From IMG/VR virus record IMGVR_UViG_3300025127_006147, positions 64,001-128,000 of that record: DNA of 64,000 nt; one strand, 5' to 3'. A model generated the notes under the pieces. The model searched no databases. It had not been told where the DNA came from and worked only from the letters and a program-made list of their open reading frames with translations. Shown here one piece after another: positions 23,252 to 57,284 of this stretch. The DNA is from a virus. Position 1 is the first letter of the stretch, and every line of letters begins with the position of its first letter. The position numbers and the translations under genes were made by a program.

Positions 23252-24163
23252 ATGGCATTAGGAACATACGGAATAAAAAGATTATCAGATGTATCTCCAG
23301 AAAATGTGGAGATAATTTCATTATATACACCTAGTAGGGAATCGGCAGCTGAGACTATTATAAAAAAGTTAAATGCACAAAGTATATTAACACCTTACTA
23401 CCATAATACAGAAACTGGAGGAACACCAGATATAGAACTTTTAGGTGGGGTGTATAACTTAAAATTACCTTATAATGAGTTTAAAGATAAAGGTATATAT
23501 AACTTAATTATTAGACCATTAGAAATTAGAACTTCAATCACAGATTGTGGGGTTTTATCATCTTTACCAACAGTAAAAGGTTTAGTTTTTGACTTAAATA
23601 ATGTTCCTACAGAGTCAAGAAATAAATTTGTTAATAATGGTTTAGTAGGATATAGAGTAGAATATTTAAATAGTGATGGTACTAAAATACCTAATTTTTA
23701 TAGGATAGTTACCTCTTCATTTTTCTGTGAACCGATAACACAAAACTTAACAAATAGTAATCAAAAAGCAATTAGATATCGTTATATAAATGGTGGGAGT
23801 AATTTACTTTTCTGTACATTAACACCTACTTCAGCACCATCCAATAAACCAACAGCTTTACCATATATTGGACAACCAGCACAAAATGTTATAATAACAA
23901 ACACACATTTTAATCCTGTACACATTGAAATAGAAATGGTTGATTACGATGTTGATAGTTTAGGTATAGCACTGTACGGTAATCAAACTAAATCACTTAG
24001 TGATGGTGTATACACACTATACGATAGTAACAATAATATTTATAAACAATACAACTTATACGAAACTAGAGACCAGTTTGGACAACCACTATATGAGGTT
24101 AGACAAGATAGAGGGAATAACATAGACTTTACGAAAGCATTTAACAATATCGCACAACAGTAA
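23252..24163 (+). CDS. putative virion structural protein
   Basis: 303 aa; stop overlaps the next start (TAATG). Confidence 0.55.
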   Translation: MALGTYGIKRLSDVSPENVEIISLYTPSRESAAETIIKKLNAQSILTPYYHNTETGGTPDIELLGGVYNLKLPYNEFKDKGIYNLIIRPLEIRTSITDCGVLSSLPTVKGLVFDLNNVPTESRNKFVNNGLVGYRVEYLNSDGTKIPNFYRIVTSSFFCEPITQNLTNSNQKAIRYRYINGGSNLLFCTLTPTSAPSNKPTALPYIGQPAQNVIITNTHFNPVHIEIEMVDYDVDSLGIALYGNQTKSLSDGVYTLYDSNNNIYKQYNLYETRDQFGQPLYEVRQDRGNNIDFTKAFNNIAQQ

Positions 24164-27100
24164 TGGCTGGAATTTATAACAATAATAATAGTCCTATACC
24201 TGGTAATGGAGCTGACTTTTTTGGAGACAAATTAGTAGGTAACCAATTCGTAGACGGGTCTTCACAATTTACATTAGGTAATTTTGAAATTAAAAGTAAT
24301 GTAAATCAAAAAGATTCTAGAAGTTTTAGTTTAGGTAACTTTTCAGAACCCATATCCCTAGAAACACTTAACATTAAAAGTTCTGAAGAGGCAAAAATTT
24401 TAGCTTCGAATCGATTAGAAGTTTTTATTAATTATAGTAGAAGTAAAATCACTAATTTTACTTTATACGGTTCTTTAAGAGAACGATTAAAAGTAGCCGT
24501 TAATAATGTTATAAAACAATTTCCAGCAGCTCTTGTTTTTAAGAAAATAAGAGATTGGTCTGACTATAATAGTGGTAATACTGCTACAAATATTAGTTTT
24601 AACGCTAGTACGAATAAAACAAATATAAGTTTACACTTATATAATGTTTTTAACCCATTTAGTATTGAATATACTCAGGTAGGTAATCTTTATACTGATG
24701 AAAACATTTCCTCTTTAAGAAATTTAAGTATAGAATATAAAAAATATTCTTTATATTATAAGAATGTAGAATATCCCCTTACATTTTTAACACCAACTAC
24801 AGGTAATACTAGTATCGGAAATTTAAATATTGTGGTTGAGGGAAATCCTTTTAGTGGGGCCTCAGTGACTACAGATTCTTTTTATGTTAAACCAAACACT
24901 CTAACAACTGAAGAAGTGTTTGATAAAATGGAAGACGTGGAGAAGTATCTGGTAGAAAGAACCACCAATCCTTTATATACTGCCACATTTGACCAACCTA
25001 GAGAAACAAGTACTGGTAAAATTGTTAAATCTAGTGTGTCTGTAACTTGGCCATCTACTGATAATTGGAACTTAATAATAAACGGTGGTTTATTTGAGTC
25101 TTACCTAGCTAAATTATATGATATCGCTGACACCTACGACTCCTATAAAACAAATTTAGTTTCCAGATTTTTAACTACTGCTGCATTAAAAGAGTTTGAC
25201 ACTTATGATGAAAAAGTAGATAAAATATTAAAAATATATGGTAGAAGTTTTGATGAGATTAAAAAATATATAGATGGGTTAGCTTATATGGCAAATACCA
25301 CTTATGATGGGATAAACAATATACCTAACGAATTATTAAAGAATTTTGCACAAACTTTAGGGTGGGGCACTCCTTCCGCTATAAAAAGTGAAGGTTTCTT
25401 GGATACTATATTTAAAAGGAGTACTGCTGTTGAGTATGGGGGACTTGCACAAAATCAAACACCTACTGAACTTAACTATGAATTATATAGAAGATTATTA
25501 GCTAATACCGCTTACCTATTTAAATCTAAAGGTACAAGAAGAGGTATTGAGTTTATGTTAAGATTTGTGGGTGCACCAGAAGCACTTATAGAATTTAATG
25601 AACATGTTTATGTTGCTGGTCAACCACTAAACATGAGAGAATTTAGAAATTACGAATTAAAAATATCAGGAGGGACTTACACAGAAGAAGTTCCAGTTTT
25701 AAATACTTATTTTTCAGCTGCCACAAATAATACATTCCCAGCGGTCGTAATCACAGGATACACATTTGGTTACGAAACTATAACTAAGTCAACAAATATA
25801 ATACCTGAAGTATTACCCGTAGATAAAGACGGTTACCCGACAGTCCCAAGATATGGGGCAGATTCTTATTTCCAATCAGGAGCTGGTTGGTTTGAAGAAA
25901 CTACCGAACATCAAGGTAAAAAAGTTATAGATTATGAGAATTCTGTTTTTACTGGTAATACTCCTTTTGTTCGTACAAAACTAAATCAATTTTCTTACGG
26001 AGAACCATACTTGGAATTATATAGAAAATTCCCTGATTCTAAATTAGGATTCCCAATAGTAAGAACCGTAGATAATAAAAAATCTTGGGTAAGAAAAAAC
26101 TCATATCAACAAAGATATTTAAATTTACCAGATAGAGGTACAAATTACCAAACACAAAACGATAAATTAGTAATCAACGTTAAAAACGTTGATATATTTC
26201 TTAATATAGGGCAAGGTCTCGAATGGGATGTGTGGAATTTTTCTAAAAAGTATAGTTGTCCTTTTGGTCCTAACGCTTTAGGTTCTCCATACCCAGGAGT
26301 TGGTGGACCTGATTGGACTGAAATAATTGCAGATGCATCTAAACTTTCTTTCTTCGAATTTGCTCAAAAATTCTGGACTGTTTTAATTAACGTTAAAAAT
26401 AGACAAACTATAGACGATGGACATGCTGGAGGTTACCCAACACTTTTAAGTATATATTTAGATTATTTAAAAAGTGACCAAACCTGTGGTATACCTAGTA
26501 ACAAGTATACGTATGAAAAAATGATTGCCTATGTAGAAAACATGGGAGATTATTGGGTAAGATTATTGGAACAATTAGTTCCTTCTACAACAATTTGGCA
26601 GGGAGGTATTAAATATGAAAACTCCATATTCCATCGATACAAATACGCTTATAAACACGAACCTCTTTGTGATGATTTAGAATGTTTTGGGTCTTTTGTA
26701 CATTGTTGTTATCCTATCGCTAATGATATTTTAGTGGACGCTACCTTAGAATGTGGGGGACTCGCTTTTTCAGGTGCTACTTGGCAAAATAAAATTACTT
26801 TAGGTGGGACGGTATATACTGGTAACACTTATTATAGTAGTACAACTATTACTGATATACCTAGTACTGATATATGGTTAGATGATATGGTTGAAATACT
26901 TAGTGGTATTACCACAAATGTAACGGACCCTAATCACACCCTTTCGTATTATTTAATTAATGATAACAATACACCTACAGGTCTTCAGATAGACCAACCT
27001 AACTGTATTGTTATTCAGGGACCTTGTGGAACTGGACAAGAAGTATGTGATTGTCCTCCAGGGTACGAATATGACGCGGTAAGTGAATTATGTTTGGCAT

Positions 27101-30100
27101 ATACAGCAAGCACCACAACTACTGGTACCACTATTAATAAAGCAGCTGGAAATACTGGTTATAATCAATTTGGAGCACGGTTTTGTGTACCAGGTAGTTA
27201 CACCACTTGTGGAAGTGGAGCACCAGCCTCTAATTTTAAGGTAATTGGAGGTGCTAGTAATCCTTTTTGGGATGCTAATTCAACTAATACACAAGGTAGA
27301 TTAAATAATGTGGGGGTAAATAATGCTGATATGTTAACGAGTGACCATTTCTTTGGTTTCTCTAGATGTATAGATGTACCAGAGAAAGGAGAATATTTAT
27401 TTGCTCTCGCAGGAGATGATGAAATACGTGCAAACCTTAATGGTGTTCAGATAGTTAACAATCCGTGGAACGGAACAATGAATGCTAACAATTTTAGATA
27501 TTGGTGGGTATGGCCTGTTACTTTAAATGCGGGTCAGAATACTCTAACATTGGAAGGAGCTAACGGATTTTCGGGTGGACCTGCTTCATTTGGTTGTGAA
27601 ATTGTTGGACCTTTTGCTGAGGGTACTTTTACTGTAAATACAGATTTTGATATATTCTCCGCTCAAACTGGTATAGATACTTACACCGCTAATACTATTT
27701 TTTCTAGTCTAAACGAAGTAGGAAATACATTTAATACTCAAACTAATGTCTGTCCTTCTGGGTACACATATGATGTGTGTACTGATTCGTGTGTAAAAAC
27801 TACTGAACCTGGATGTATTACATACCCCGATGGTGAAGATGTATGGAATTTTAATAGTGGCTCTGACCCACATTGTTTTAAATCTGAAATTTGTCTTACC
27901 CTACAAACCACGCAAGTAAATCCAGTTCCTAATGGTACGGATATCTGGGCATTTTATGATACTACTTCCACTGGTGCCGATATGGCAAATGCAGCAAAAA
28001 CTTCACTAGATAGTTGGGTGTCTAGTTTAGGTAGTTCTTTTACTGGTAACACTTACCATATCCCCGTGGGTGGTGAAAGATGGTTAAGTTGGGCATCGTC
28101 ACCTATAAGTGGAGGAACTCTACCTATAACCAATACTTACGGAGCTGGTTTTAATGTTTTACCGTCAGGGATGGTAGGAAATACCGTTCCAGTTGGAGTT
28201 AGTCCAAATGTCCTCTCAATATATTTTATTGATGAAAGTAGACCCGTCTATCACGATTATCCTTCACTAAATTCATGTAATTACTATGCACCGTCAGGTA
28301 ATATTGCTACAGATTGGTTAAATCAACCAACAGTGACTTATAGTGGTGACTTTAATACTTTTATGTCAGCATTTAATGCTTACGACGACTTTAAAGGATT
28401 TATATATCCAGTAGTTAAAGACGCTAATGCAAGTAGATTACCTTTCCCATTACATGTTTATGGAGCTTTAGAAACTTCTATTGTCGCTATCAGTGATTTA
28501 ATTGAGAACCCTACAGTTACTGCGGCGGGAGGTACTTTGTCCGCAATTACTATAACCAATCCATACACTGGTTTAACAGGAACTAATAATAATACTGCTT
28601 ATACGGGACCAGGATTGAAAAACTTTGGTTTTGGTGCAAACTATACTTTAGGTACTGATAGTTGTAATGGTTTAATTTGCTCGGACCCAGGATTCCAATC
28701 ATCATGTTTAACTAGTGACGCTAGTAGATTCTTTGACGGAACCTTCCAACAGGACCTATTTGCCTTCTTACAAGGAAGTAGTGATGTCACATTAATAGAT
28801 TGTGAAATTTGTATACCTGTGTGTTATGGAGAGGGAACAGAAACCCAAGAATGGAGTAAAAGTAAACTTTATAATTATGGTGATATAGTATTATGGCAAG
28901 GACAATTATGGGTGTGGTTAGGGTTTGACAACACCTATACTAATAGACCAGACGTTTCAAAAGCTTGGTCTTTACGTGGAGCAGCAGATTGTATTCCATT
29001 TTTAGGGGGTAATGATTTTAGACCACATGATGACTGTGATGATTTTACTGTTATACCTGAAAACCCAGAAGTAACTGGTACAACAATTACCACTAATCCT
29101 GAAATATTTAAAGAATCTATATTTAATGTTGGTGGACAAGATTGTTTTGATTCCACATATAATCCTTGTGAAGAATTAACAGACCCTTGTGGGTGTTCTG
29201 CAACATTTGGACAGTTTGATGAAACTACTGTATTATTCGCAGTGGGAGATGTGGTATGTTGTCCAGGTGACCCAGATACACCACCGACTAAATGGATTAG
29301 AGTTATAGGAAGTAGTAACTGTGATAGTTTACAGTTATTTATACCAGCTCTCTGTGGGCCCACACCACCACAAAGTAAATGTTGGAGATTATGTGAACCA
29401 GAAACAGAAGGAGAAGGTGCAACTTCTGGTGGTTTTTGGGGTAAAGAAACTGTTAGAAGAAGAAGACCTTCATTAATATCAAATTCACCTACTGACCCTT
29501 GTGACCCAAGTTATGAAAATCCTACTGACCCTTGTGATTGTCAAGGTATTGGATTTAGAAATGTAGATTTAGATTTTTATTTATTGAATAGTATTGTTGG
29601 TGTTCCAGATTCTATAATGGAATTTTTTATGGAGGAAGACGCTATTGACCCAACTAACTGGACACAACCAATCAATAGTATTACCACTGACCCAAAAGTA
29701 TACAAAGCACAAATAAATGCGTGTTGTCTAGGAGATAAATTTACCCATTATTTTAGGGTGTATCATAGAACTGGTAATATACCTACAGACCCTTCACAGA
29801 TAACTTACGGTGAGTATGAAATTGATTTTGACATGAATCAGAATTGTAATATAGAATTTTACCATGTTGAAGCTGGTGATACAGTTAAAATGTTCATGCA
29901 CATCCCATCAGACACACTTACGAACAACGCTACTATTAGTATAATTGATAATCCATTACTTGGTATTCCATACCTAACCCAAAATTTAGGCGCGAGTAAC
30001 TACTTCAATAACACTAATGGTAATGGATTACAAAGTTTAACATTCCAAATAGGAAAAATAGACACCACTTCGAATATACACCAATTTTTCAAAGTAGATG

Positions 30101-33100
30101 ATAGTAACTATTTGACAGATAATGGGACAAACTCAACTAATGAAGAAACTAATGATATTTTTGATAGATATTGGGCTCTAGACCCATTTTTAGGTGGACA
30201 ACCATTATATGGTGCTTTAACTCCAATCGAATTATTAAATATAAGTGGAAACCATGGTGACAGTCCAGGATTTTTAGGTATTGGAAGTTACAGATTTAAC
30301 TGGGAAATGGAATTATCTTGTGAAGGTCAACAAACTTTAGAACTTTCATTTACACTTAACTCATTTAGTCCTTTACCTAGTGGTGGAGCTGGAAGTATAA
30401 ATAAAGAACCAGGTGCGGTTATAGGAACACCACTTCAACCAGGTGTTGGAGGAAGTGTAGGTAAAGCACCAAGTATCGGAGGAAGTAGTCAATTAATAGG
30501 AGCAGCTACAACTCAACCCGTAGTTATTAGTAAACCATCTATTCAAGTACCATTTACTAAAAATGTATGTGGAACTGACATGTCTTCACCTATTATAAAT
30601 CAAAATGAAAGTGCAAATGGTAAGGTAGAATCTATATCCCGTATTCAAACCAGTGGAAATTTAACTGATATTCCAGTAGCTAAATCATTAACTGATGTTA
30701 ATAGTGATATAAATATAAAAAACTATACAATTACTAATAGTGAAATGTACATTGTAAGTAATTTTAATCCTTTAAAAAATAATAGAGTTGTTGAATATAA
30801 CTCCCCTGTATTAAGTAGAAATTTAAAAAATGGGTTAACATATGGAACTTTCACAGAAAATGGTAGAGAAAGAGCTAAACTATCTTGGTTAGATAATTTT
30901 ACTAAAAACGGTAAAACCAAAATAAATATTGAATTTGTTAGTGACGAAAATAAAAAACGTTTCGAACAAGATTTAAAACTTAAAAATGTTGGACAAGGAG
31001 TGGAGTTTTTACCAGGTAGAAATAAAAGTAATACCACTATCACTGAAACAGTAGGTAAAACCCAATTTATAGATTTAAGAGATTGGGCAACAAGAAGTTT
31101 AGGGGATGTAAAAGACTTTTCAAATTCTAGTATAGTATACGGTAACGATGGATTATTAAAAAGATTTGAAATAGGACCTACCTTTACAACAGAAATAGCT
31201 AACTCACAATATAAAATAGGTACCGCACCAATAGGTGACCCACATACGGAGTTTATAATTTCCACTATGGGGTCACTAGAAGATTACTTATCTTATCAAA
31301 CTGGTACCACATCTAGTGCTCTTACCATTACATTGACTGGGGTAAGTACTTTATATTCTGGTTATACTAATTTAAGTGGGTACACAGATAATGAAGGGTT
31401 AAACCTTAGTCCAGATTTTGTTTTCGATTTATCTTTAAATGAAAATAACATATCCTACACTACTGGTGTACCATTTTCTGACCCTACATTCTCCGAAAGA
31501 AGAGAAGTGTCGGGAGTAATATCTAGAGACTTTAAATTACTTGGTGATGAAAGACGATTACGACCAGTAATCCCTATGAAAACTTTAAGTGAAGATAATC
31601 AATTATTCTTCCTACCACGAGAAGAAGTGTCTACATCTGGAGATTATTTCTATTATAAGGTACCTAAAACCCAAAACTATCGATTACAATATAAAAGTTG
31701 TATTTATTTTGATTATTTTGATGAAGGGTGGTGTACATATTTAGATACATTTAGAAGACAAACTAATAATCTTTTCCCTGTAAATGATTATGATTTTATA
31801 CAATTAATAAACTCTAGTATAGTGTATGTTGGTGGAGAATTAAGTGCACCATACCAATACAACGAAGGAAATATAATTAATGACGCTTATAGTAGATTGG
31901 GTGTAACAGGTACTAGTATGTCACCTATTTTTGGATATAATGCTGGGAATGGTATTAAAGATTTTAAGGTTAATGTTTACATAGAAAGACTATTATCTGG
32001 AACTACAGCAACTACAGTTATTGGAGATTACGTTATAGGTAGTAATCCTACAGACTACCCTAACGCTAATGAACACTTACTACTACCAGTCAATGATTCT
32101 GATAAGTTTACTGACCTATATCAATGTACTGGAATGACAGCGACCACTAAGGTGTTCAATAAAAAGTTTACACCGTATATTGATACAGGATGTGTACAAC
32201 TAAATAAGGATGATGAAATTAGATTAAGAATAAATATAGAGTGGGAAAACACTACAAAAAATAATACTATTGGTATTAGTAGTGGACTCACAGCTTCTAC
32301 TATAAGTCTTAAAGTAGGGACTGACTACAGTGAGTCGATACCTAAAAGACCTTGGTTCCGAGTTATAAATAAAGAATGTAATGTTCCAGAAACTACAACC
32401 TACCTTTATTGGCAAGCTAATGAAACTGGCCCAGTAAGTACTCAATTATACTCCAAAGGTGAAACAATACAACCGACACAGGGTAGTGAAGTAGGCAGAT
32501 TAGTTTTTACCGATACTAAAGATAACTTAGATTACGTGACACCAAATATAAGAGTTAATAATCTTCAAAATTTAACATATTTTGACTTACCTAACGAAAC
32601 AGATTATCAAGGAAATTTAAAATTAATTGAAACACAAAATAAAACAAATAATTGGGTACGTCAATTAGAAAATAATGAAATAAAAGACTTTAAAATAAAT
32701 TCAGGTAAAATACTTAATGTGGAAAATAATATGGAGGTTAAATGGAACGTGCCAATACCAACTAGAAATAATGTAGATAGTATTAGTTTAGATGACCCAA
32801 GATTTACTTTCCTAATAGAATCAAATGTTAAAGTTAAGGGTACTTTAAACGAATTTAAAATTTTAAATACTATTAAACCAGACTTTAAATCAGACACTAC
32901 TAAAGAAGAGATGGTAGACGTAGAAACATTAATTAATTCTAATAATATTACTTACACATCTTCAAGACCTTTAGAAGAAAGAACTATAGGCTTTGATGAT
33001 AATAGGACTATAATTAGAGAAAAGATAGTCGCGGTAGAAAGTGTGATATATGATAAGAATACCCCTACGGCTGATAAAGAAAGGACACAATATTGTAAAT

Positions 33101-33294
33101 GTGGTGATTCTTCCTTTATTCCAGTACCTTACAATAGTACTGTGGGTTGTGACCAGTGGTGTTGTGTAAATAGTTATGAAAATTCTACCTACTATCCATG
33201 TAGAGAAAAAACAATAAACCAGTGGGCAAATGGTCTTAACCTTAAAAGGGTAATAGTTCCTAACCCTACAAATGGAATAATAAGAGGATTATAA
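24163..33294 (+). CDS. giant (3043 aa) baseplate wedge/tail protein: gp7/P2-gpI-like N-terminal part plus adhesin-type modules (PA14-like, vWA-like, CBM5/12-like)
   Basis: YLFKSKGTRRGIEFMLRFVG (KGT wedge motif); IDVPEKGEYLFALAGDDEIRANLNG (PA14-like DD); WSKSKLYNYGDIVLWQGQLW (CBM5/12-like); Cys-rich spacers. Confidence 0.65.
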   Translation: MAGIYNNNNSPIPGNGADFFGDKLVGNQFVDGSSQFTLGNFEIKSNVNQKDSRSFSLGNFSEPISLETLNIKSSEEAKILASNRLEVFINYSRSKITNFTLYGSLRERLKVAVNNVIKQFPAALVFKKIRDWSDYNSGNTATNISFNASTNKTNISLHLYNVFNPFSIEYTQVGNLYTDENISSLRNLSIEYKKYSLYYKNVEYPLTFLTPTTGNTSIGNLNIVVEGNPFSGASVTTDSFYVKPNTLTTEEVFDKMEDVEKYLVERTTNPLYTATFDQPRETSTGKIVKSSVSVTWPSTDNWNLIINGGLFESYLAKLYDIADTYDSYKTNLVSRFLTTAALKEFDTYDEKVDKILKIYGRSFDEIKKYIDGLAYMANTTYDGINNIPNELLKNFAQTLGWGTPSAIKSEGFLDTIFKRSTAVEYGGLAQNQTPTELNYELYRRLLANTAYLFKSKGTRRGIEFMLRFVGAPEALIEFNEHVYVAGQPLNMREFRNYELKISGGTYTEEVPVLNTYFSAATNNTFPAVVITGYTFGYETITKSTNIIPEVLPVDKDGYPTVPRYGADSYFQSGAGWFEETTEHQGKKVIDYENSVFTGNTPFVRTKLNQFSYGEPYLELYRKFPDSKLGFPIVRTVDNKKSWVRKNSYQQRYLNLPDRGTNYQTQNDKLVINVKNVDIFLNIGQGLEWDVWNFSKKYSCPFGPNALGSPYPGVGGPDWTEIIADASKLSFFEFAQKFWTVLINVKNRQTIDDGHAGGYPTLLSIYLDYLKSDQTCGIPSNKYTYEKMIAYVENMGDYWVRLLEQLVPSTTIWQGGIKYENSIFHRYKYAYKHEPLCDDLECFGSFVHCCYPIANDILVDATLECGGLAFSGATWQNKITLGGTVYTGNTYYSSTTITDIPSTDIWLDDMVEILSGITTNVTDPNHTLSYYLINDNNTPTGLQIDQPNCIVIQGPCGTGQEVCDCPPGYEYDAVSELCLAYTASTTTTGTTINKAAGNTGYNQFGARFCVPGSYTTCGSGAPASNFKVIGGASNPFWDANSTNTQGRLNNVGVNNADMLTSDHFFGFSRCIDVPEKGEYLFALAGDDEIRANLNGVQIVNNPWNGTMNANNFRYWWVWPVTLNAGQNTLTLEGANGFSGGPASFGCEIVGPFAEGTFTVNTDFDIFSAQTGIDTYTANTIFSSLNEVGNTFNTQTNVCPSGYTYDVCTDSCVKTTEPGCITYPDGEDVWNFNSGSDPHCFKSEICLTLQTTQVNPVPNGTDIWAFYDTTSTGADMANAAKTSLDSWVSSLGSSFTGNTYHIPVGGERWLSWASSPISGGTLPITNTYGAGFNVLPSGMVGNTVPVGVSPNVLSIYFIDESRPVYHDYPSLNSCNYYAPSGNIATDWLNQPTVTYSGDFNTFMSAFNAYDDFKGFIYPVVKDANASRLPFPLHVYGALETSIVAISDLIENPTVTAAGGTLSAITITNPYTGLTGTNNNTAYTGPGLKNFGFGANYTLGTDSCNGLICSDPGFQSSCLTSDASRFFDGTFQQDLFAFLQGSSDVTLIDCEICIPVCYGEGTETQEWSKSKLYNYGDIVLWQGQLWVWLGFDNTYTNRPDVSKAWSLRGAADCIPFLGGNDFRPHDDCDDFTVIPENPEVTGTTITTNPEIFKESIFNVGGQDCFDSTYNPCEELTDPCGCSATFGQFDETTVLFAVGDVVCCPGDPDTPPTKWIRVIGSSNCDSLQLFIPALCGPTPPQSKCWRLCEPETEGEGATSGGFWGKETVRRRRPSLISNSPTDPCDPSYENPTDPCDCQGIGFRNVDLDFYLLNSIVGVPDSIMEFFMEEDAIDPTNWTQPINSITTDPKVYKAQINACCLGDKFTHYFRVYHRTGNIPTDPSQITYGEYEIDFDMNQNCNIEFYHVEAGDTVKMFMHIPSDTLTNNATISIIDNPLLGIPYLTQNLGASNYFNNTNGNGLQSLTFQIGKIDTTSNIHQFFKVDDSNYLTDNGTNSTNEETNDIFDRYWALDPFLGGQPLYGALTPIELLNISGNHGDSPGFLGIGSYRFNWEMELSCEGQQTLELSFTLNSFSPLPSGGAGSINKEPGAVIGTPLQPGVGGSVGKAPSIGGSSQLIGAATTQPVVISKPSIQVPFTKNVCGTDMSSPIINQNESANGKVESISRIQTSGNLTDIPVAKSLTDVNSDINIKNYTITNSEMYIVSNFNPLKNNRVVEYNSPVLSRNLKNGLTYGTFTENGRERAKLSWLDNFTKNGKTKINIEFVSDENKKRFEQDLKLKNVGQGVEFLPGRNKSNTTITETVGKTQFIDLRDWATRSLGDVKDFSNSSIVYGNDGLLKRFEIGPTFTTEIANSQYKIGTAPIGDPHTEFIISTMGSLEDYLSYQTGTTSSALTITLTGVSTLYSGYTNLSGYTDNEGLNLSPDFVFDLSLNENNISYTTGVPFSDPTFSERREVSGVISRDFKLLGDERRLRPVIPMKTLSEDNQLFFLPREEVSTSGDYFYYKVPKTQNYRLQYKSCIYFDYFDEGWCTYLDTFRRQTNNLFPVNDYDFIQLINSSIVYVGGELSAPYQYNEGNIINDAYSRLGVTGTSMSPIFGYNAGNGIKDFKVNVYIERLLSGTTATTVIGDYVIGSNPTDYPNANEHLLLPVNDSDKFTDLYQCTGMTATTKVFNKKFTPYIDTGCVQLNKDDEIRLRINIEWENTTKNNTIGISSGLTASTISLKVGTDYSESIPKRPWFRVINKECNVPETTTYLYWQANETGPVSTQLYSKGETIQPTQGSEVGRLVFTDTKDNLDYVTPNIRVNNLQNLTYFDLPNETDYQGNLKLIETQNKTNNWVRQLENNEIKDFKINSGKILNVENNMEVKWNVPIPTRNNVDSISLDDPRFTFLIESNVKVKGTLNEFKILNTIKPDFKSDTTKEEMVDVETLINSNNITYTSSRPLEERTIGFDDNRTIIREKIVAVESVIYDKNTPTADKERTQYCKCGDSSFIPVPYNSTVGCDQWCCVNSYENSTYYPCREKTINQWANGLNLKRVIVPNPTNGIIRGL

Positions 33295-52977: not shown

Positions 52978-53334
52978 TTAGAAGTCCATATTATCGAATG
53001 GTTCCATAAGATTACCACGATTCTTAAATCCTACACCACCCACATAAGTTTCCATGTTGTTCATTTTTCTTCTTTCGTAGTTTAGAACTGCTAAAGCTAA
53101 CTTCCTATCATATTCCTTATCATCTGTTTCAGGGACTACACCATCATAATAGATGGAACCTCTAAAACTTCTACCAGGACCACGAAAATCCATTATCTCA
53201 TTATAATCAGAATCAGACAATTCAAATTCAACATCATCTACAGGAAGTCTGTTATCCATTTCTTCATCTTGTTCGTTAATTACTTTGTTTAAAGCTTTCT
53301 TAATATCTCTTTCAGTAATTCTAATTTTACTCAT
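52978..53334 (-). CDS. putative head-internal protein (118 aa)
   Basis: True start likely ATG 53334 (MSKIRITERDIKKALNKVINEQ) since the tracked upstream extension runs through a terminator; TATTTAT 15 nt upstream. Confidence 0.6.
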   Translation of the reverse strand: MSKIRITERDIKKALNKVINEQDEEMDNRLPVDDVEFELSDSDYNEIMDFRGPGRSFRGSIYYDGVVPETDDKEYDRKLALAVLNYERRKMNNMETYVGGVGFKNRGNLMEPFDNMDF

Positions 53335-53371: not shown

Positions 53372-53400
53372 AAAAAAAGGGAATCTTTCAATCCCCTTTT
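53372..53400 (-). terminator. Rho-independent terminator
   Basis: Minus strand reads AAAAGGGGAUU-GAAA-GAUUCCC-U7: GNRA-loop hairpin with U tract. Confidence 0.8.
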
Positions 53401-53417
53401 AATTAATTATTTAGTTT

Positions 53418-53480
53418 TTAACAATTGCAACAAGTACATTCACATTTGGTAGTACAGTTACATTCTTTACAATCACACAT
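53418..53480 (-). CDS. metallothionein-like micro-protein MCDCKECNCTTKCECTCCNC (20 aa, 9 Cys)
   Basis: ATG TGT GAT TGT AAA GAA TGT AAC TGT ACT ACC AAA TGT GAA TGT ACT TGT TGC AAT TGT TAA; 10-nt A-rich spacer after the upstream stop and a terminator 17 nt downstream; below the ORF-track cutoff. Confidence 0.75.
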   Translation of the reverse strand: MCDCKECNCTTKCECTCCNC

Positions 53481-53490
53481 AATAGTTTTT

Positions 53491-55800
53491 TTATTTACTA
53501 GCGTGATATCCAGCTAAAATTTCTTCACAGTCTTTTTTAGAAGAACATTTTTTAAAAATACCACCTTTTTTATTATTCATTATAACCCACTGGCCGTCTT
53601 TTTTTTTGATACATCCAGAACCTCCTTCAGATTCTGCACATCCTTTACCTTCTTTATTTTCCTTAAGAACTCTGTCTACGATTTTGTAAAGGTCAGCTTC
53701 TGTAAGTTTGATTACATTTTTATTAGATTTTTTAGAAATAGATTTTCTTCTAGGTTTTCTAGACTCAGATAATTCTTCTCTTTCGTCTTTTTCTAAATCT
53801 CCTACTAGTTTAAGTAATTCTGCTCTACTCATGTCTTTTACATTACCTCTAAATCCTCTGGAAAGGTCTTGAACAGGTGCGGAGTATTTTCCAGTTTCTG
53901 CACCTCCGAAAGGATTGTAAGCTTGTGAAGAAGTACCAAATTTTAATCCACCTTTACTGAAACCTCTTCTTCCGAAAGAAGGAGATGTATAAGAACCTCT
54001 AGCTCTCTCACTTCCTTTTTTACTTGTTGGAGCTTTTGTGGGAGTAGCACTCTTTCCAGAACTTTTACCAAATCCCTTAGGTATTAAACCACCGAAGTTA
54101 AATAAAACATATGCACCTTCAACACCAGATAGAGCAATAGTCTTAAATTTAAACGAACTAATTATACCTTCATCCATTTCATTTTCTTTAAATGCAGCTC
54201 TCATTCCCTTATCAAATGCTTTAGCGTCTGGACCTCCTTTAACTAAAGCTAATTGATATTCTCCAGAATTTACTAGTTCATACTCAAAGTCTACACCATC
54301 TATGGTAGCTTTTTCCACACTTCCAGGTTTTAAGTTGTAGGTAGACTTACCAACAGTAATATTTAAATCTGTACTAAAACCAGTTTCTTTGTTCATTTTA
54401 TGTGGACCTAATGATATACCTGGTTCATTAAGATTTGTATCTTGTGTCATAGTACCACCACCTTCACCGAATTCTGGTTTACCTTTTCCACCACCCATTT
54501 CTGTCGAAATCATGTCGTTAAATAGCATGTCAGGTGTAGTACCTGGATAATTACCATCTTTAGGTGCCCCTGCAGTCATAGTTAAAAATACAAATCTAGT
54601 AGTTCCTAATTCTTTGTTAGCTCCCATATTTACCTGTGAAACTTCGAATCCAGGATTCATCGCAGTTGCTACCTTCACATAAGTGGCAACATTATCAGAT
54701 GGTACTGCTAATAAACTAAATGGCCCAAAACTATATAGTGCCATTGGAAATCCTGCTAACTTATTACCTGCTGTGTATCCCTCTGGTTCTTGTCCATTAA
54801 GTTGAAGAGCAAGTTCACCATTTCTAAATGTTACATTCATAGGTGCAACCACTCCAGGAACAAGAGTTTTAGGTAAACCAGACTGTTTAGCAGAAACAGT
54901 CATTGTAGCACCTGGTGCAAATGCAGTGGTATTCGTAAATCCTTTAGCACTTTTCTTTCCTCCTCCTGGTGGTTCTTCTTCTCCACCTTTTTCTTTTTCT
55001 CCACCAGACTCTTCACCGCCTCCTTTTTCTCCACCAGACTCTTCACCGCCTCCTTTTTCTCCACCAGATTCTTCTCCGCCGCCTTCGCCGCCTCCTTCTT
55101 CTCCGCCGCCTTCGCCGCCTCCTTCACCTCCACCTTCTTTTTCTTGTTCGGTGAGTAATTTAACGTCTTCATACGACATTCCTTCTTCAAACATAATCAT
55201 TTGTTTGATTCGGTCTATTTGTTCTTGAATAGTAGTTTTCATAGTATTTTCATTTTCTTTATAAATATGTTTATATTCTTCTTTTACAGTATAAATATCA
55301 TTATTACTTGCAGTGGGTGCAGTGTAGTTGTCTAATTCAGGATTTCCTTTAGCTAATCCCACCAGATGACCAGCATTTTTTTGGTCTATATCTATATCTC
55401 CAAACACATCATAATTGTCACTATCGGTGTTGTTATTTTTAGTGTGGGACACTTTATTTTCTGGGTGAGTAACACCATGAATCTCAACATGGTCATCTCC
55501 TTTATGTTCATCGTCAGGATTTAAATAGTCTGGTTCAGGATGTAGTGGTCGTTTATTGGTTTCCTCATCGTTAAAATTATTACTATCAAACCAAGCAGTA
55601 CCTTCAAATGAAGGATTATCATTTTTTAATCTTGAAGGTCCCTTATCTATTCCTTCTTCTGGCCATCCCGAGGAAGGGTCCATTTCAGGAGTATTTGTTG
55701 GATGTATTCTATCTTTAGTGAAATCATTCTTTTTTACACCTTTTTTAATAGTCATTTTAGAATCATCTAGAGCCTCATTAAATCTATATGTAATTTTCAT
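53491..55800 (-). CDS. modular low-complexity protein, putative head-internal (poly)protein
   Basis: Acidic N-terminal module, IQEQIDRIKQM and LLTEQ, Gly/Glu repeat, C-terminal IKLTEADLYKIVDRVLKE plus a 4-Cys module. Confidence 0.6.
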   Translation of the reverse strand: MKITYRFNEALDDSKMTIKKGVKKNDFTKDRIHPTNTPEMDPSSGWPEEGIDKGPSRLKNDNPSFEGTAWFDSNNFNDEETNKRPLHPEPDYLNPDDEHKGDDHVEIHGVTHPENKVSHTKNNNTDSDNYDVFGDIDIDQKNAGHLVGLAKGNPELDNYTAPTASNNDIYTVKEEYKHIYKENENTMKTTIQEQIDRIKQMIMFEEGMSYEDVKLLTEQEKEGGGEGGGEGGGEEGGGEGGGEESGGEKGGGEESGGEKGGGEESGGEKEKGGEEEPPGGGKKSAKGFTNTTAFAPGATMTVSAKQSGLPKTLVPGVVAPMNVTFRNGELALQLNGQEPEGYTAGNKLAGFPMALYSFGPFSLLAVPSDNVATYVKVATAMNPGFEVSQVNMGANKELGTTRFVFLTMTAGAPKDGNYPGTTPDMLFNDMISTEMGGGKGKPEFGEGGGTMTQDTNLNEPGISLGPHKMNKETGFSTDLNITVGKSTYNLKPGSVEKATIDGVDFEYELVNSGEYQLALVKGGPDAKAFDKGMRAAFKENEMDEGIISSFKFKTIALSGVEGAYVLFNFGGLIPKGFGKSSGKSATPTKAPTSKKGSERARGSYTSPSFGRRGFSKGGLKFGTSSQAYNPFGGAETGKYSAPVQDLSRGFRGNVKDMSRAELLKLVGDLEKDEREELSESRKPRRKSISKKSNKNVIKLTEADLYKIVDRVLKENKEGKGCAESEGGSGCIKKKDGQWVIMNNKKGGIFKKCSSKKDCEEILAGYHASK
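54991..55135 (-). repeat. GC-rich 30-bp and 27-bp tandem repeats encoding Gly/Glu linker
   Basis: ccaccagactcttcaccgcctcctttttct identical at 55001-55030 and 55031-55060; cttctccgccgccttcgccgcctcctt identical at 55071-55097 and 55098-55124. Confidence 0.92.
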
Positions 55801-56489: not shown

Positions 56490-57284
56490 ATGAAAAAAAC
56501 AGGACCCTTCATCAACCAAGAAGAAATTTCTCACTACTTAAAAGACGTGAGGAAAATAGACGTACTTACAGTTAATAGAGAAAAAATGTTAGCTAAAATA
56601 ATGTTGAACGACCCCACCCCAGAACAAAAAGAACAAATAGAAAAAGAATTAATGTTAGGTAATTTAAGATTTGTTATTAGTGTTGCAAGAGACTACCAAA
56701 ATCAAGGGGTAGATTTACCAGATTTAATAGCCGAAGGAAATCACGGACTTCTAAAGGCTATTAGAAATTTTGATTGGAGTAAAGGAAATAGATTTATTTC
56801 ATACGCGGTATGGTGGGTGAAACAATCAATATTTCAATGTCTTAATGAACACGCAAGAACCATTCGTCTCCCAGCTAATGTAGTACAAGAGGTACAAAAA
56901 GCTAAAAAAATGAGTGAAAAGGAAAATTATGTGATGGATAGTAAACTACAAAATTTGCCTTATACCACCAACTTAGATAGACCTATAAATGAAGAAGGTG
57001 ATACACTAGTTACAATAATAGAAAATGAAAATGCTCAAAACCCTGAAGATATATTTGATACTGACGAACAGTTAAAAGTAGAACTTAGAAAAATAATGAC
57101 AGTATTAGATGATAGGGAGATGAGAATTGTTGGAGACTATTTTGGTCTGACTGGTACACCTAGAACATTATCGGACATCGGTGATGATTTTAACCTAACT
57201 AAAGAAAGAGTTAGACAAATTAAAGAAAAAGCATTACGTAAATTACGTAATGAGAGTAGAGAACTTCTAGATTATATACTGTAA
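56490..57284 (+). CDS. rpoD: RNA polymerase sigma70-family factor, RpoD-like, no region 1.1
   Basis: YLKDV (1.2), GNLRFVISVA, DLIAEGNHGLLKA, RFISYAVWW, RTIRLP, HTH TLSDIG..FNLTKERVRQIKEKALRKLR. Confidence 0.93.
   Translation: MKKTGPFINQEEISHYLKDVRKIDVLTVNREKMLAKIMLNDPTPEQKEQIEKELMLGNLRFVISVARDYQNQGVDLPDLIAEGNHGLLKAIRNFDWSKGNRFISYAVWWVKQSIFQCLNEHARTIRLPANVVQEVQKAKKMSEKENYVMDSKLQNLPYTTNLDRPINEEGDTLVTIIENENAQNPEDIFDTDEQLKVELRKIMTVLDDREMRIVGDYFGLTGTPRTLSDIGDDFNLTKERVRQIKEKALRKLRNESRELLDYIL

Follow-up and report, generated by a model that had tools for sequence, protein, structure and literature searches.

A candidate minimal metallothionein-like family encoded by nine-cysteine micro-genes of phages and marine Bacteroidota

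Metallothioneins reportedly follow an operational definition by Kagi and co-workers, which comprises low molecular mass, a very high Cys content in CxC, CC and CxxC motifs, absence or scarcity of aromatic residues and His, and abundant metal held in metal-thiolate clusters. The metallothionein beta domain of vertebrates and crustaceans is a unit of ~30 residues within a two-domain protein, and the nine Cys of such beta domains hold three divalent ions or ~six Cu(I). Fungal copper metallothioneins of the Neurospora and Agaricus type are ~25 aa in length and contain 7 Cys but no CC pair. Among prokaryotes, SmtA/BmtA (PF02069) and mycobacterial MymT are small Cys-rich metal-binding proteins of ~53-56 aa, and SmtA uses His ligands and has a zinc-finger-like fold. 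To our knowledge, no metallothionein as short as 20 residues has been described.

Here, we analyzed a window of 64,000 nucleotides, corresponding to bases 64001-128000 of a 194-kb IMG/VR virus record (194,481 bp; G+C ~32%; completeness estimate 61%), and found that it carries on its minus strand a micro-gene of 20 codons plus TAA at 53418-53480. The frame starts with ATG at 53480-53478, continues for 19 more codons and stops with TAA at 53420-53418. Its product, MCDCKECNCTTKCECTCCNC, contains nine Cys among 20 residues with the spacing C-x-C-x2-C-x-C-x3-C-x-C-x-C-C-x-C, the last Cys being the C-terminal end. Upstream on the same strand, a gene for a 769-aa protein (53491-55800, minus) ends 10 nt before the ATG, and the intervening spacer (53481-53490, minus) is an A-rich translation-initiation region with A at -3, -6 and -7 to -12 and no Shine-Dalgarno sequence. 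An intrinsic-terminator-like hairpin of 11 pairs with a GAAA loop followed by a T run (53375-53400, minus) lies 17 nt past the stop, and a same-strand gene for a 118-aa protein (52978-53334, minus) is situated beyond this terminator. Inside the micro-gene, a 14-nt direct repeat with a period of 18 nt, or 6 codons, forms two x-C-x-C-T units (53433-53464, minus). We obtained the same frame and translation as the preliminary description, which had reported a minus-strand ORF of 20 aa with 9 Cys, and both the 10-nt A-rich spacer after the 769-aa gene and the GNRA-loop terminator mentioned there are present. Its further claim that the Cys arrangement is hard to get by chance agrees with a binomial expectation of 6e-5 for a window with nine Cys codons. 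Indeed, no other in-frame stretch of 19 codons anywhere in the 194,481-bp record contains 9 TGY codons, and the maximum in 20 simulated second-order Markov genomes was 5-6 Cys codons per 19-codon window.

Eight syntenic loci (L122, L123 and L312-L317) were retrieved through homologues of the 769-aa protein, a route that is blind to the Cys pattern. In all eight, the micro-ORF is kept with all nine Cys and its stop, the 118-aa gene is present and the terminator is nearly identical. Five non-Cys positions change among these loci, for example K to Q/E, E to K/I, N to K/D and T to G, and Thr, Asp and Cys codons show synonymous substitutions. The micro-ORF is retained despite differences among the syntenic relatives at the upstream gene's 3' end, and it is still kept in L316, where an additional 39-aa gene is inserted. 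A conserved ORF with synonymous variation at the syntenic position, which had been put forward as a check in the preliminary description, was therefore seen in every relative. The 769-aa protein itself belongs to no Pfam or PHROG family. Its homologues range from 490 to 1063 aa, and one of them aligns over the full length with 46% identity, whereas the best local alignments of the others cover ~28-36% of the query with 40-68% identity. Because the alignments are mostly partial, the 769-aa protein appears to combine a conserved part with a highly variable part. Its C-terminus is swapped for a different one in L123 and L312-L316. In the window, the last ~50 residues of the protein (53491-53650, minus) include C, C, C and H, and the same ~50-residue C-terminus, with 79% identity, ends a stand-alone 80-aa protein on an unrelated 90-kb viral contig (L001:3920-4162). 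This contig, the first viral relative, was rejected as a syntenic locus, since it has only the ~50-aa C-terminal domain in common with the 769-aa protein and no micro-gene.

The family was collected with a degenerate DNA pattern of the Cys spacing plus stop, which was run on IMG/VR and on species-representative genomes, the latter giving 83 raw pattern matches. The raw matches were mostly TGC/TGT microsatellites, and the filter applied was at most 10 Cys and no stop. Together with loci added from two partial-pattern scans, the family amounts to at least 164 viral, 38 genomic and 8 syntenic loci, with peptides of 20-23 residues and at least 154 distinct core peptides, all of which have the complete spacing found in the window. 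Among the matches listed, the stop directly follows the last Cys in 208 of 210 loci. A scan in which no stop was required gave two family-like cores lacking a stop right after the last Cys, one of which merely has one extra Lys. Because the full pattern fixed every Cys and was thus subject to ascertainment bias, the two partial patterns were used. Fixing the first two and last three Cys only gave 86 loci with 61 unique sequences, in which Cys occupied 244 of 244 cells of the four free Cys columns while the remaining free columns varied. Likewise, when only the N-terminal half was fixed, all 25 unique sequences had the complete C-terminal Cys set and 24 of them ended exactly at the last Cys. 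A longer variant of 35 aa with 13 Cys carries an additional N-terminal CxCxxCxC block (L129:795-902, minus), and a related sequence in an archaeal MAG (L257) has a more Cys-dense C-terminal block after a Lys-rich N-terminus.

The nucleotide changes within the family are those of a protein-coding gene family under selection on the peptide. Both TGT and TGC occur in every Cys column of the family alignment, and the conserved Ser at core position 11 is encoded 109 times by TCN and 23 times by AGY. In close pairs, 39% of the single-base changes in non-Cys codons are synonymous, compared with 19% expected. An ATG lies 1-4 codons ahead of the first Cys in 148 of 153 loci, so that 0-3 residues separate Met from the first Cys (1-3 in 144 of the 148 ATG-bearing peptides). 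The start regions of the family have A at -3 in 86% and at -6 in 77% of cases, and at -10 to -14 in 71-80%. In Flavobacterium johnsoniae, which belongs to a phylum that does without Shine-Dalgarno sequences, A at such positions has been measured as a positive determinant of initiation (PMC6847099). Correspondingly, the phage's own long genes have the same A-rich leaders, and only 6 of 131 show an SD-like 4-mer. The absence of a translation signal had been named in the preliminary description as evidence against the gene; the start context expected for the host phylum is present. A scan against Rfam gave nothing above threshold and only sub-threshold matches driven by the terminator. These patterns make it highly probable that the micro-gene represents a genuine coding gene family that is translated and under purifying selection at the protein level.

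The family is carried by uncultured marine phages of low G+C (median 0.31 for the viral loci) and by a few marine Bacteroidota with small genomes. Gene neighbourhoods of the viral loci are several and unrelated, with primase, clamp loader, thymidylate-kinase-like, sialyltransferase-like and FAD-dependent dehydrogenase genes and many unknowns, the micro-gene being the sole constant unit across them. The flavoprotein of one phage lineage (e.g. L169:877-2451) has 420-520 aa, a weak Pyr_redox_2 N-terminus and a match to phrog_12409, and is encoded on the same strand as the micro-gene. No match was found in cultured phage genomes by megablast with the 3.1-kb region, by blastn with a family locus or by tblastn with the peptide, although in the last case the low-complexity filter may hide the peptide. 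The 38 genomic copies come almost all from MAGs and single-cell genomes of marine Bacteroidota, with labels including Flavobacteriaceae, Cryomorphaceae MED-G11, Marinoscillum and uncultured Bacteroidetes, and on contigs of up to 1.1 Mb. This presence in host chromosomes had not been foreseen in the preliminary description. The host locus is conserved and consists of a glutamine-synthetase-like gene, a divergent Na/Ca-exchanger-family gene, tRNA-Arg(ACG), the micro-gene, a gene for a 144-aa protein and a convergent pirin gene, with MsrA nearby. Five genomes of 1.2-1.7 Mb each have one copy, and the distribution in hosts is patchy, since the exact pattern occurs in one of the 401 order-level genomes searched, namely the genome on which the search was centred. 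Host copies usually start with M-D and lack Gly at core position 9, whereas most phage copies have that Gly; the window's phage lineage is also without it. From the type of start signal together with the family distribution, we infer that the host of the window's phage is a marine member of Bacteroidota.

In terms of composition, the family resembles metallothioneins. The product in the window has 45% Cys in CxC, CxxC and CC motifs, and the spacing of its nine Cys is invariant in the at least 154 cores. A peptide of 20-23 residues is well under 10 kDa. The non-Cys residues of the family are N, S, K, D, T, G, E and Q; F, W and Y are absent, and a single His was found among ~1,500 non-Cys residues of the cores. 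The family thus has every sequence-level feature of the metallothionein definition, and the description as metallothionein-like holds for composition and motifs. With the beta domain of vertebrates and crustaceans, the micro-peptide shares the nine Cys, the CxC and CxxC motifs, K, S, T, N, D and G between the Cys, the lack of aromatics and His, and a size that corresponds to a single cluster domain. However, the Cys order is not collinear, no homology is detectable, and the micro-peptide of 20 residues stands alone and is encoded by phages and Bacteroidota. The fungal copper metallothioneins and plant Ec-1 are similar in being very short single-cluster peptides with C-x-C-G-x-x-C-x-C blocks, but they are of eukaryotic origin, and the fungal peptides have seven Cys without the CC pair found here among nine. 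In comparison with SmtA/BmtA and MymT, with which the micro-peptides would share metal binding by analogy, they are less than half as long, have virtually no His and match no Pfam family. Indeed, profile searches against Pfam, NCBIfam and PHROGs gave no match at E<=10, so the family falls into no curated metallothionein family, including that of SmtA. The sole match in a PDB profile search was the wheat Ec-1 metallothionein, which is not significant (E=8.2); in this non-significant match, the commonest central block of the family, C-x-C-G-[TS]-S-C-x-C, aligns with C-x-C-G-x-x-C-x-C of wheat Ec-1. Regarding genomic context, the conserved neighbours in phage and host loci include neither a metal transporter nor a metal sensor or metallochaperone. 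The phage contexts contain replication and nucleotide genes plus unknowns, and the host contexts contain tRNA-Arg and the Na/Ca-exchanger-family, glutamine-synthetase-like, pirin and MsrA genes.

Given these metallothionein features, the likeliest mechanism is a single metal-thiolate cluster that would be wrapped by the whole peptide. In the window, the micro-gene would be transcribed as the last cistron behind the 769-aa gene, with its own terminator next to it, and would yield a 20-residue cytoplasmic peptide whose nine invariant Cys wrap one small cluster. By analogy with nine-Cys beta domains, the cluster might contain ~three Zn(II)/Cd(II) or several Cu(I), and the peptide would act as a minimal metallothionein-like metal buffer or chaperone. 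Supply of metal to Zn-finger proteins and relief from metal toxicity, as put forward in the preliminary description, are hypothetical roles of such a buffer. The cluster may include the free C-terminal Cys, and the frame might end at the last Cys for this reason. Moreover, the internal 6-codon repeat suggests that the peptide grew as CxC units were duplicated, a course also taken by other metallothioneins. Against this reading speak the lack of a profile match to a known family, the absence of metal genes among the conserved neighbours, the very short length and the rarity in hosts. We put the chance of a metal-thiolate function of the peptide at about even.

Most of the remaining probability goes to a real peptide with a different job, such as a thiol/disulfide redox peptide, a carrier of Fe-S or another cofactor, or a small inhibitor of a host or phage protein, in which the Cys may be structural Zn ligands rather than a metal store. 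The evidence for conservation and translation is silent on what the Cys do, and phage micro-proteins are often inhibitors. Weak hints in this direction are the proximity of pirin and MsrA, both linked to oxidative stress, to the host loci, and the FAD-dependent dehydrogenase gene found behind the micro-gene in 34 viral loci, with a distance of 100-126 nt in ~19 of these. However, full pairing into disulfides is impossible with an odd number of nine Cys, CxxC and CxxxxC redox motifs are missing from the flavoprotein, and no neighbour is conserved across lineages. In addition, the family Cys spacing lies, as far as we know, outside the usual ferredoxin and zinc-ribbon patterns. We therefore regard a different job as unlikely, though well worth consideration. 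The peptide could also be a RiPP core, i.e. ribosomally made and post-translationally modified by host enzymes, since many RiPP cores are likewise short and contain much Cys, Ser and Thr, and marine Flavobacteriaceae have been reported to be RiPP-rich (PMC11118758). This is improbable, because the peptide has neither leader nor follower, with 0-3 residues before the first Cys and its end at the last one. Furthermore, no radical-SAM, YcaO, lanthipeptide or MNIO enzyme was found among the conserved neighbour clusters scanned with Pfam, and for phage loci also with PHROGs, and the phage contexts vary.

The layout in the window also recalls trpL/hisL-type attenuator leaders, which are likewise short ORFs rich in one codon type just ahead of a terminator. 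As a cysteine-sensing leader peptide, the micro-ORF would set termination at the hairpin through ribosome speed over its nine Cys codons and thereby control the same-strand 118-aa gene. The terminator at 17 nt from the stop fits such a role, and terminator-like hairpins are enriched after viral members of the family (28 of 99, versus 13 of 459 control windows). Nevertheless, ~70% of viral and 90% of host members lack the hairpin, and the fold contains no alternative antiterminator pairing, the terminator forming independently. In several host loci, the next gene runs convergently, and the downstream genes, which include no cognate biosynthetic operon, are unrelated to cysteine or sulfur. Moreover, the peptide sequence itself is conserved, and a leader would not need the exact Cys spacing, the conserved non-Cys residues and the fixed C-terminal end. 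This control function is thus very improbable. Least probable of all is that the locus is no gene, but a TGT-rich DNA repeat or a chance ORF. The AT-rich genome, the short repeat within the ORF and the many TGC/TGT microsatellites elsewhere that also match the Cys pattern would speak for it. They are outweighed by the low chance expectation given above, by the start, frame and stop kept in at least 154 distinct cores with synonymous turnover, and by the lack of an Rfam match above threshold. The leader-peptide, RiPP and chance readings are therefore disfavoured.

If the preferred metal-thiolate reading is correct, the peptides would constitute a metallothionein family that is both new and very small, and their gene would represent a novel type of auxiliary gene by which phages act on trace metals. 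As expected in the preliminary description, gene callers miss the micro-gene: of nine exact peptides, a collection of ~15 billion proteins contains a single one, which carries no name. Since 20-codon genes are below the usual gene-calling cut-offs, protein databases and family libraries do not include this family of at least 154 distinct peptides and at least 200 loci. Our literature search, which covered few subscription journals, found no description of a metallothionein-like micro-peptide of phages or Bacteroidota. We therefore present the family as a candidate new, minimal and phage-borne metallothionein family. Tentatively, and with somewhat less than even confidence, we further propose that it comprises the shortest gene-encoded metallothionein, in a new family common to marine Bacteroidota and their phages, and that in phages it serves as an auxiliary gene capturing or buffering Zn, Cu and Cd during infection in metal-poor or copper-stressed seawater. 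Such trace-metal capture or buffering, if true, would link phage infection to ocean trace-metal cycling. Even if the function differs, micro-protein biology gains a clearly delimited object of study in an invariant nine-Cys peptide whose last Cys is always its end.

Several minor features of the loci were also observed. In host loci, tRNA-Arg(ACG) genes of either orientation are located ~90-500 nt from the micro-gene, on the side of its start. The distance is ~90-110 nt for L237:6208-6281, L259:630-702 and L305:6592-6665, and ~430 nt for L235:5531-5604 and L239:1938-2011; in L247, tRNA-Val takes the place of tRNA-Arg. A tRNA-Cys as host neighbour was ruled out, the gene being tRNA-Arg, and ORFs antisense to the Na/Ca-exchanger gene of the hosts (cluster 7) were judged spurious. 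tRNA genes are common insertion points for mobile DNA, and their adjacency might bear on the movement of the micro-gene between hosts and phages. Past the host micro-gene stop, at ~20-60 nt and before the next gene, an AT-rich conserved block similar to TGATAATCA is found in L237, L238, L259, L305, L307 and L309. This block loosely resembles a Fur/Zur-box half-site, a likeness that could be compositional. In addition, the phage record containing the window encodes a sigma-70-type factor of its own, adjoining a DUF6576 protein, as well as an SbcC-like protein and a 3043-aa ORF (window positions 56490-57284 and 24163-33294).
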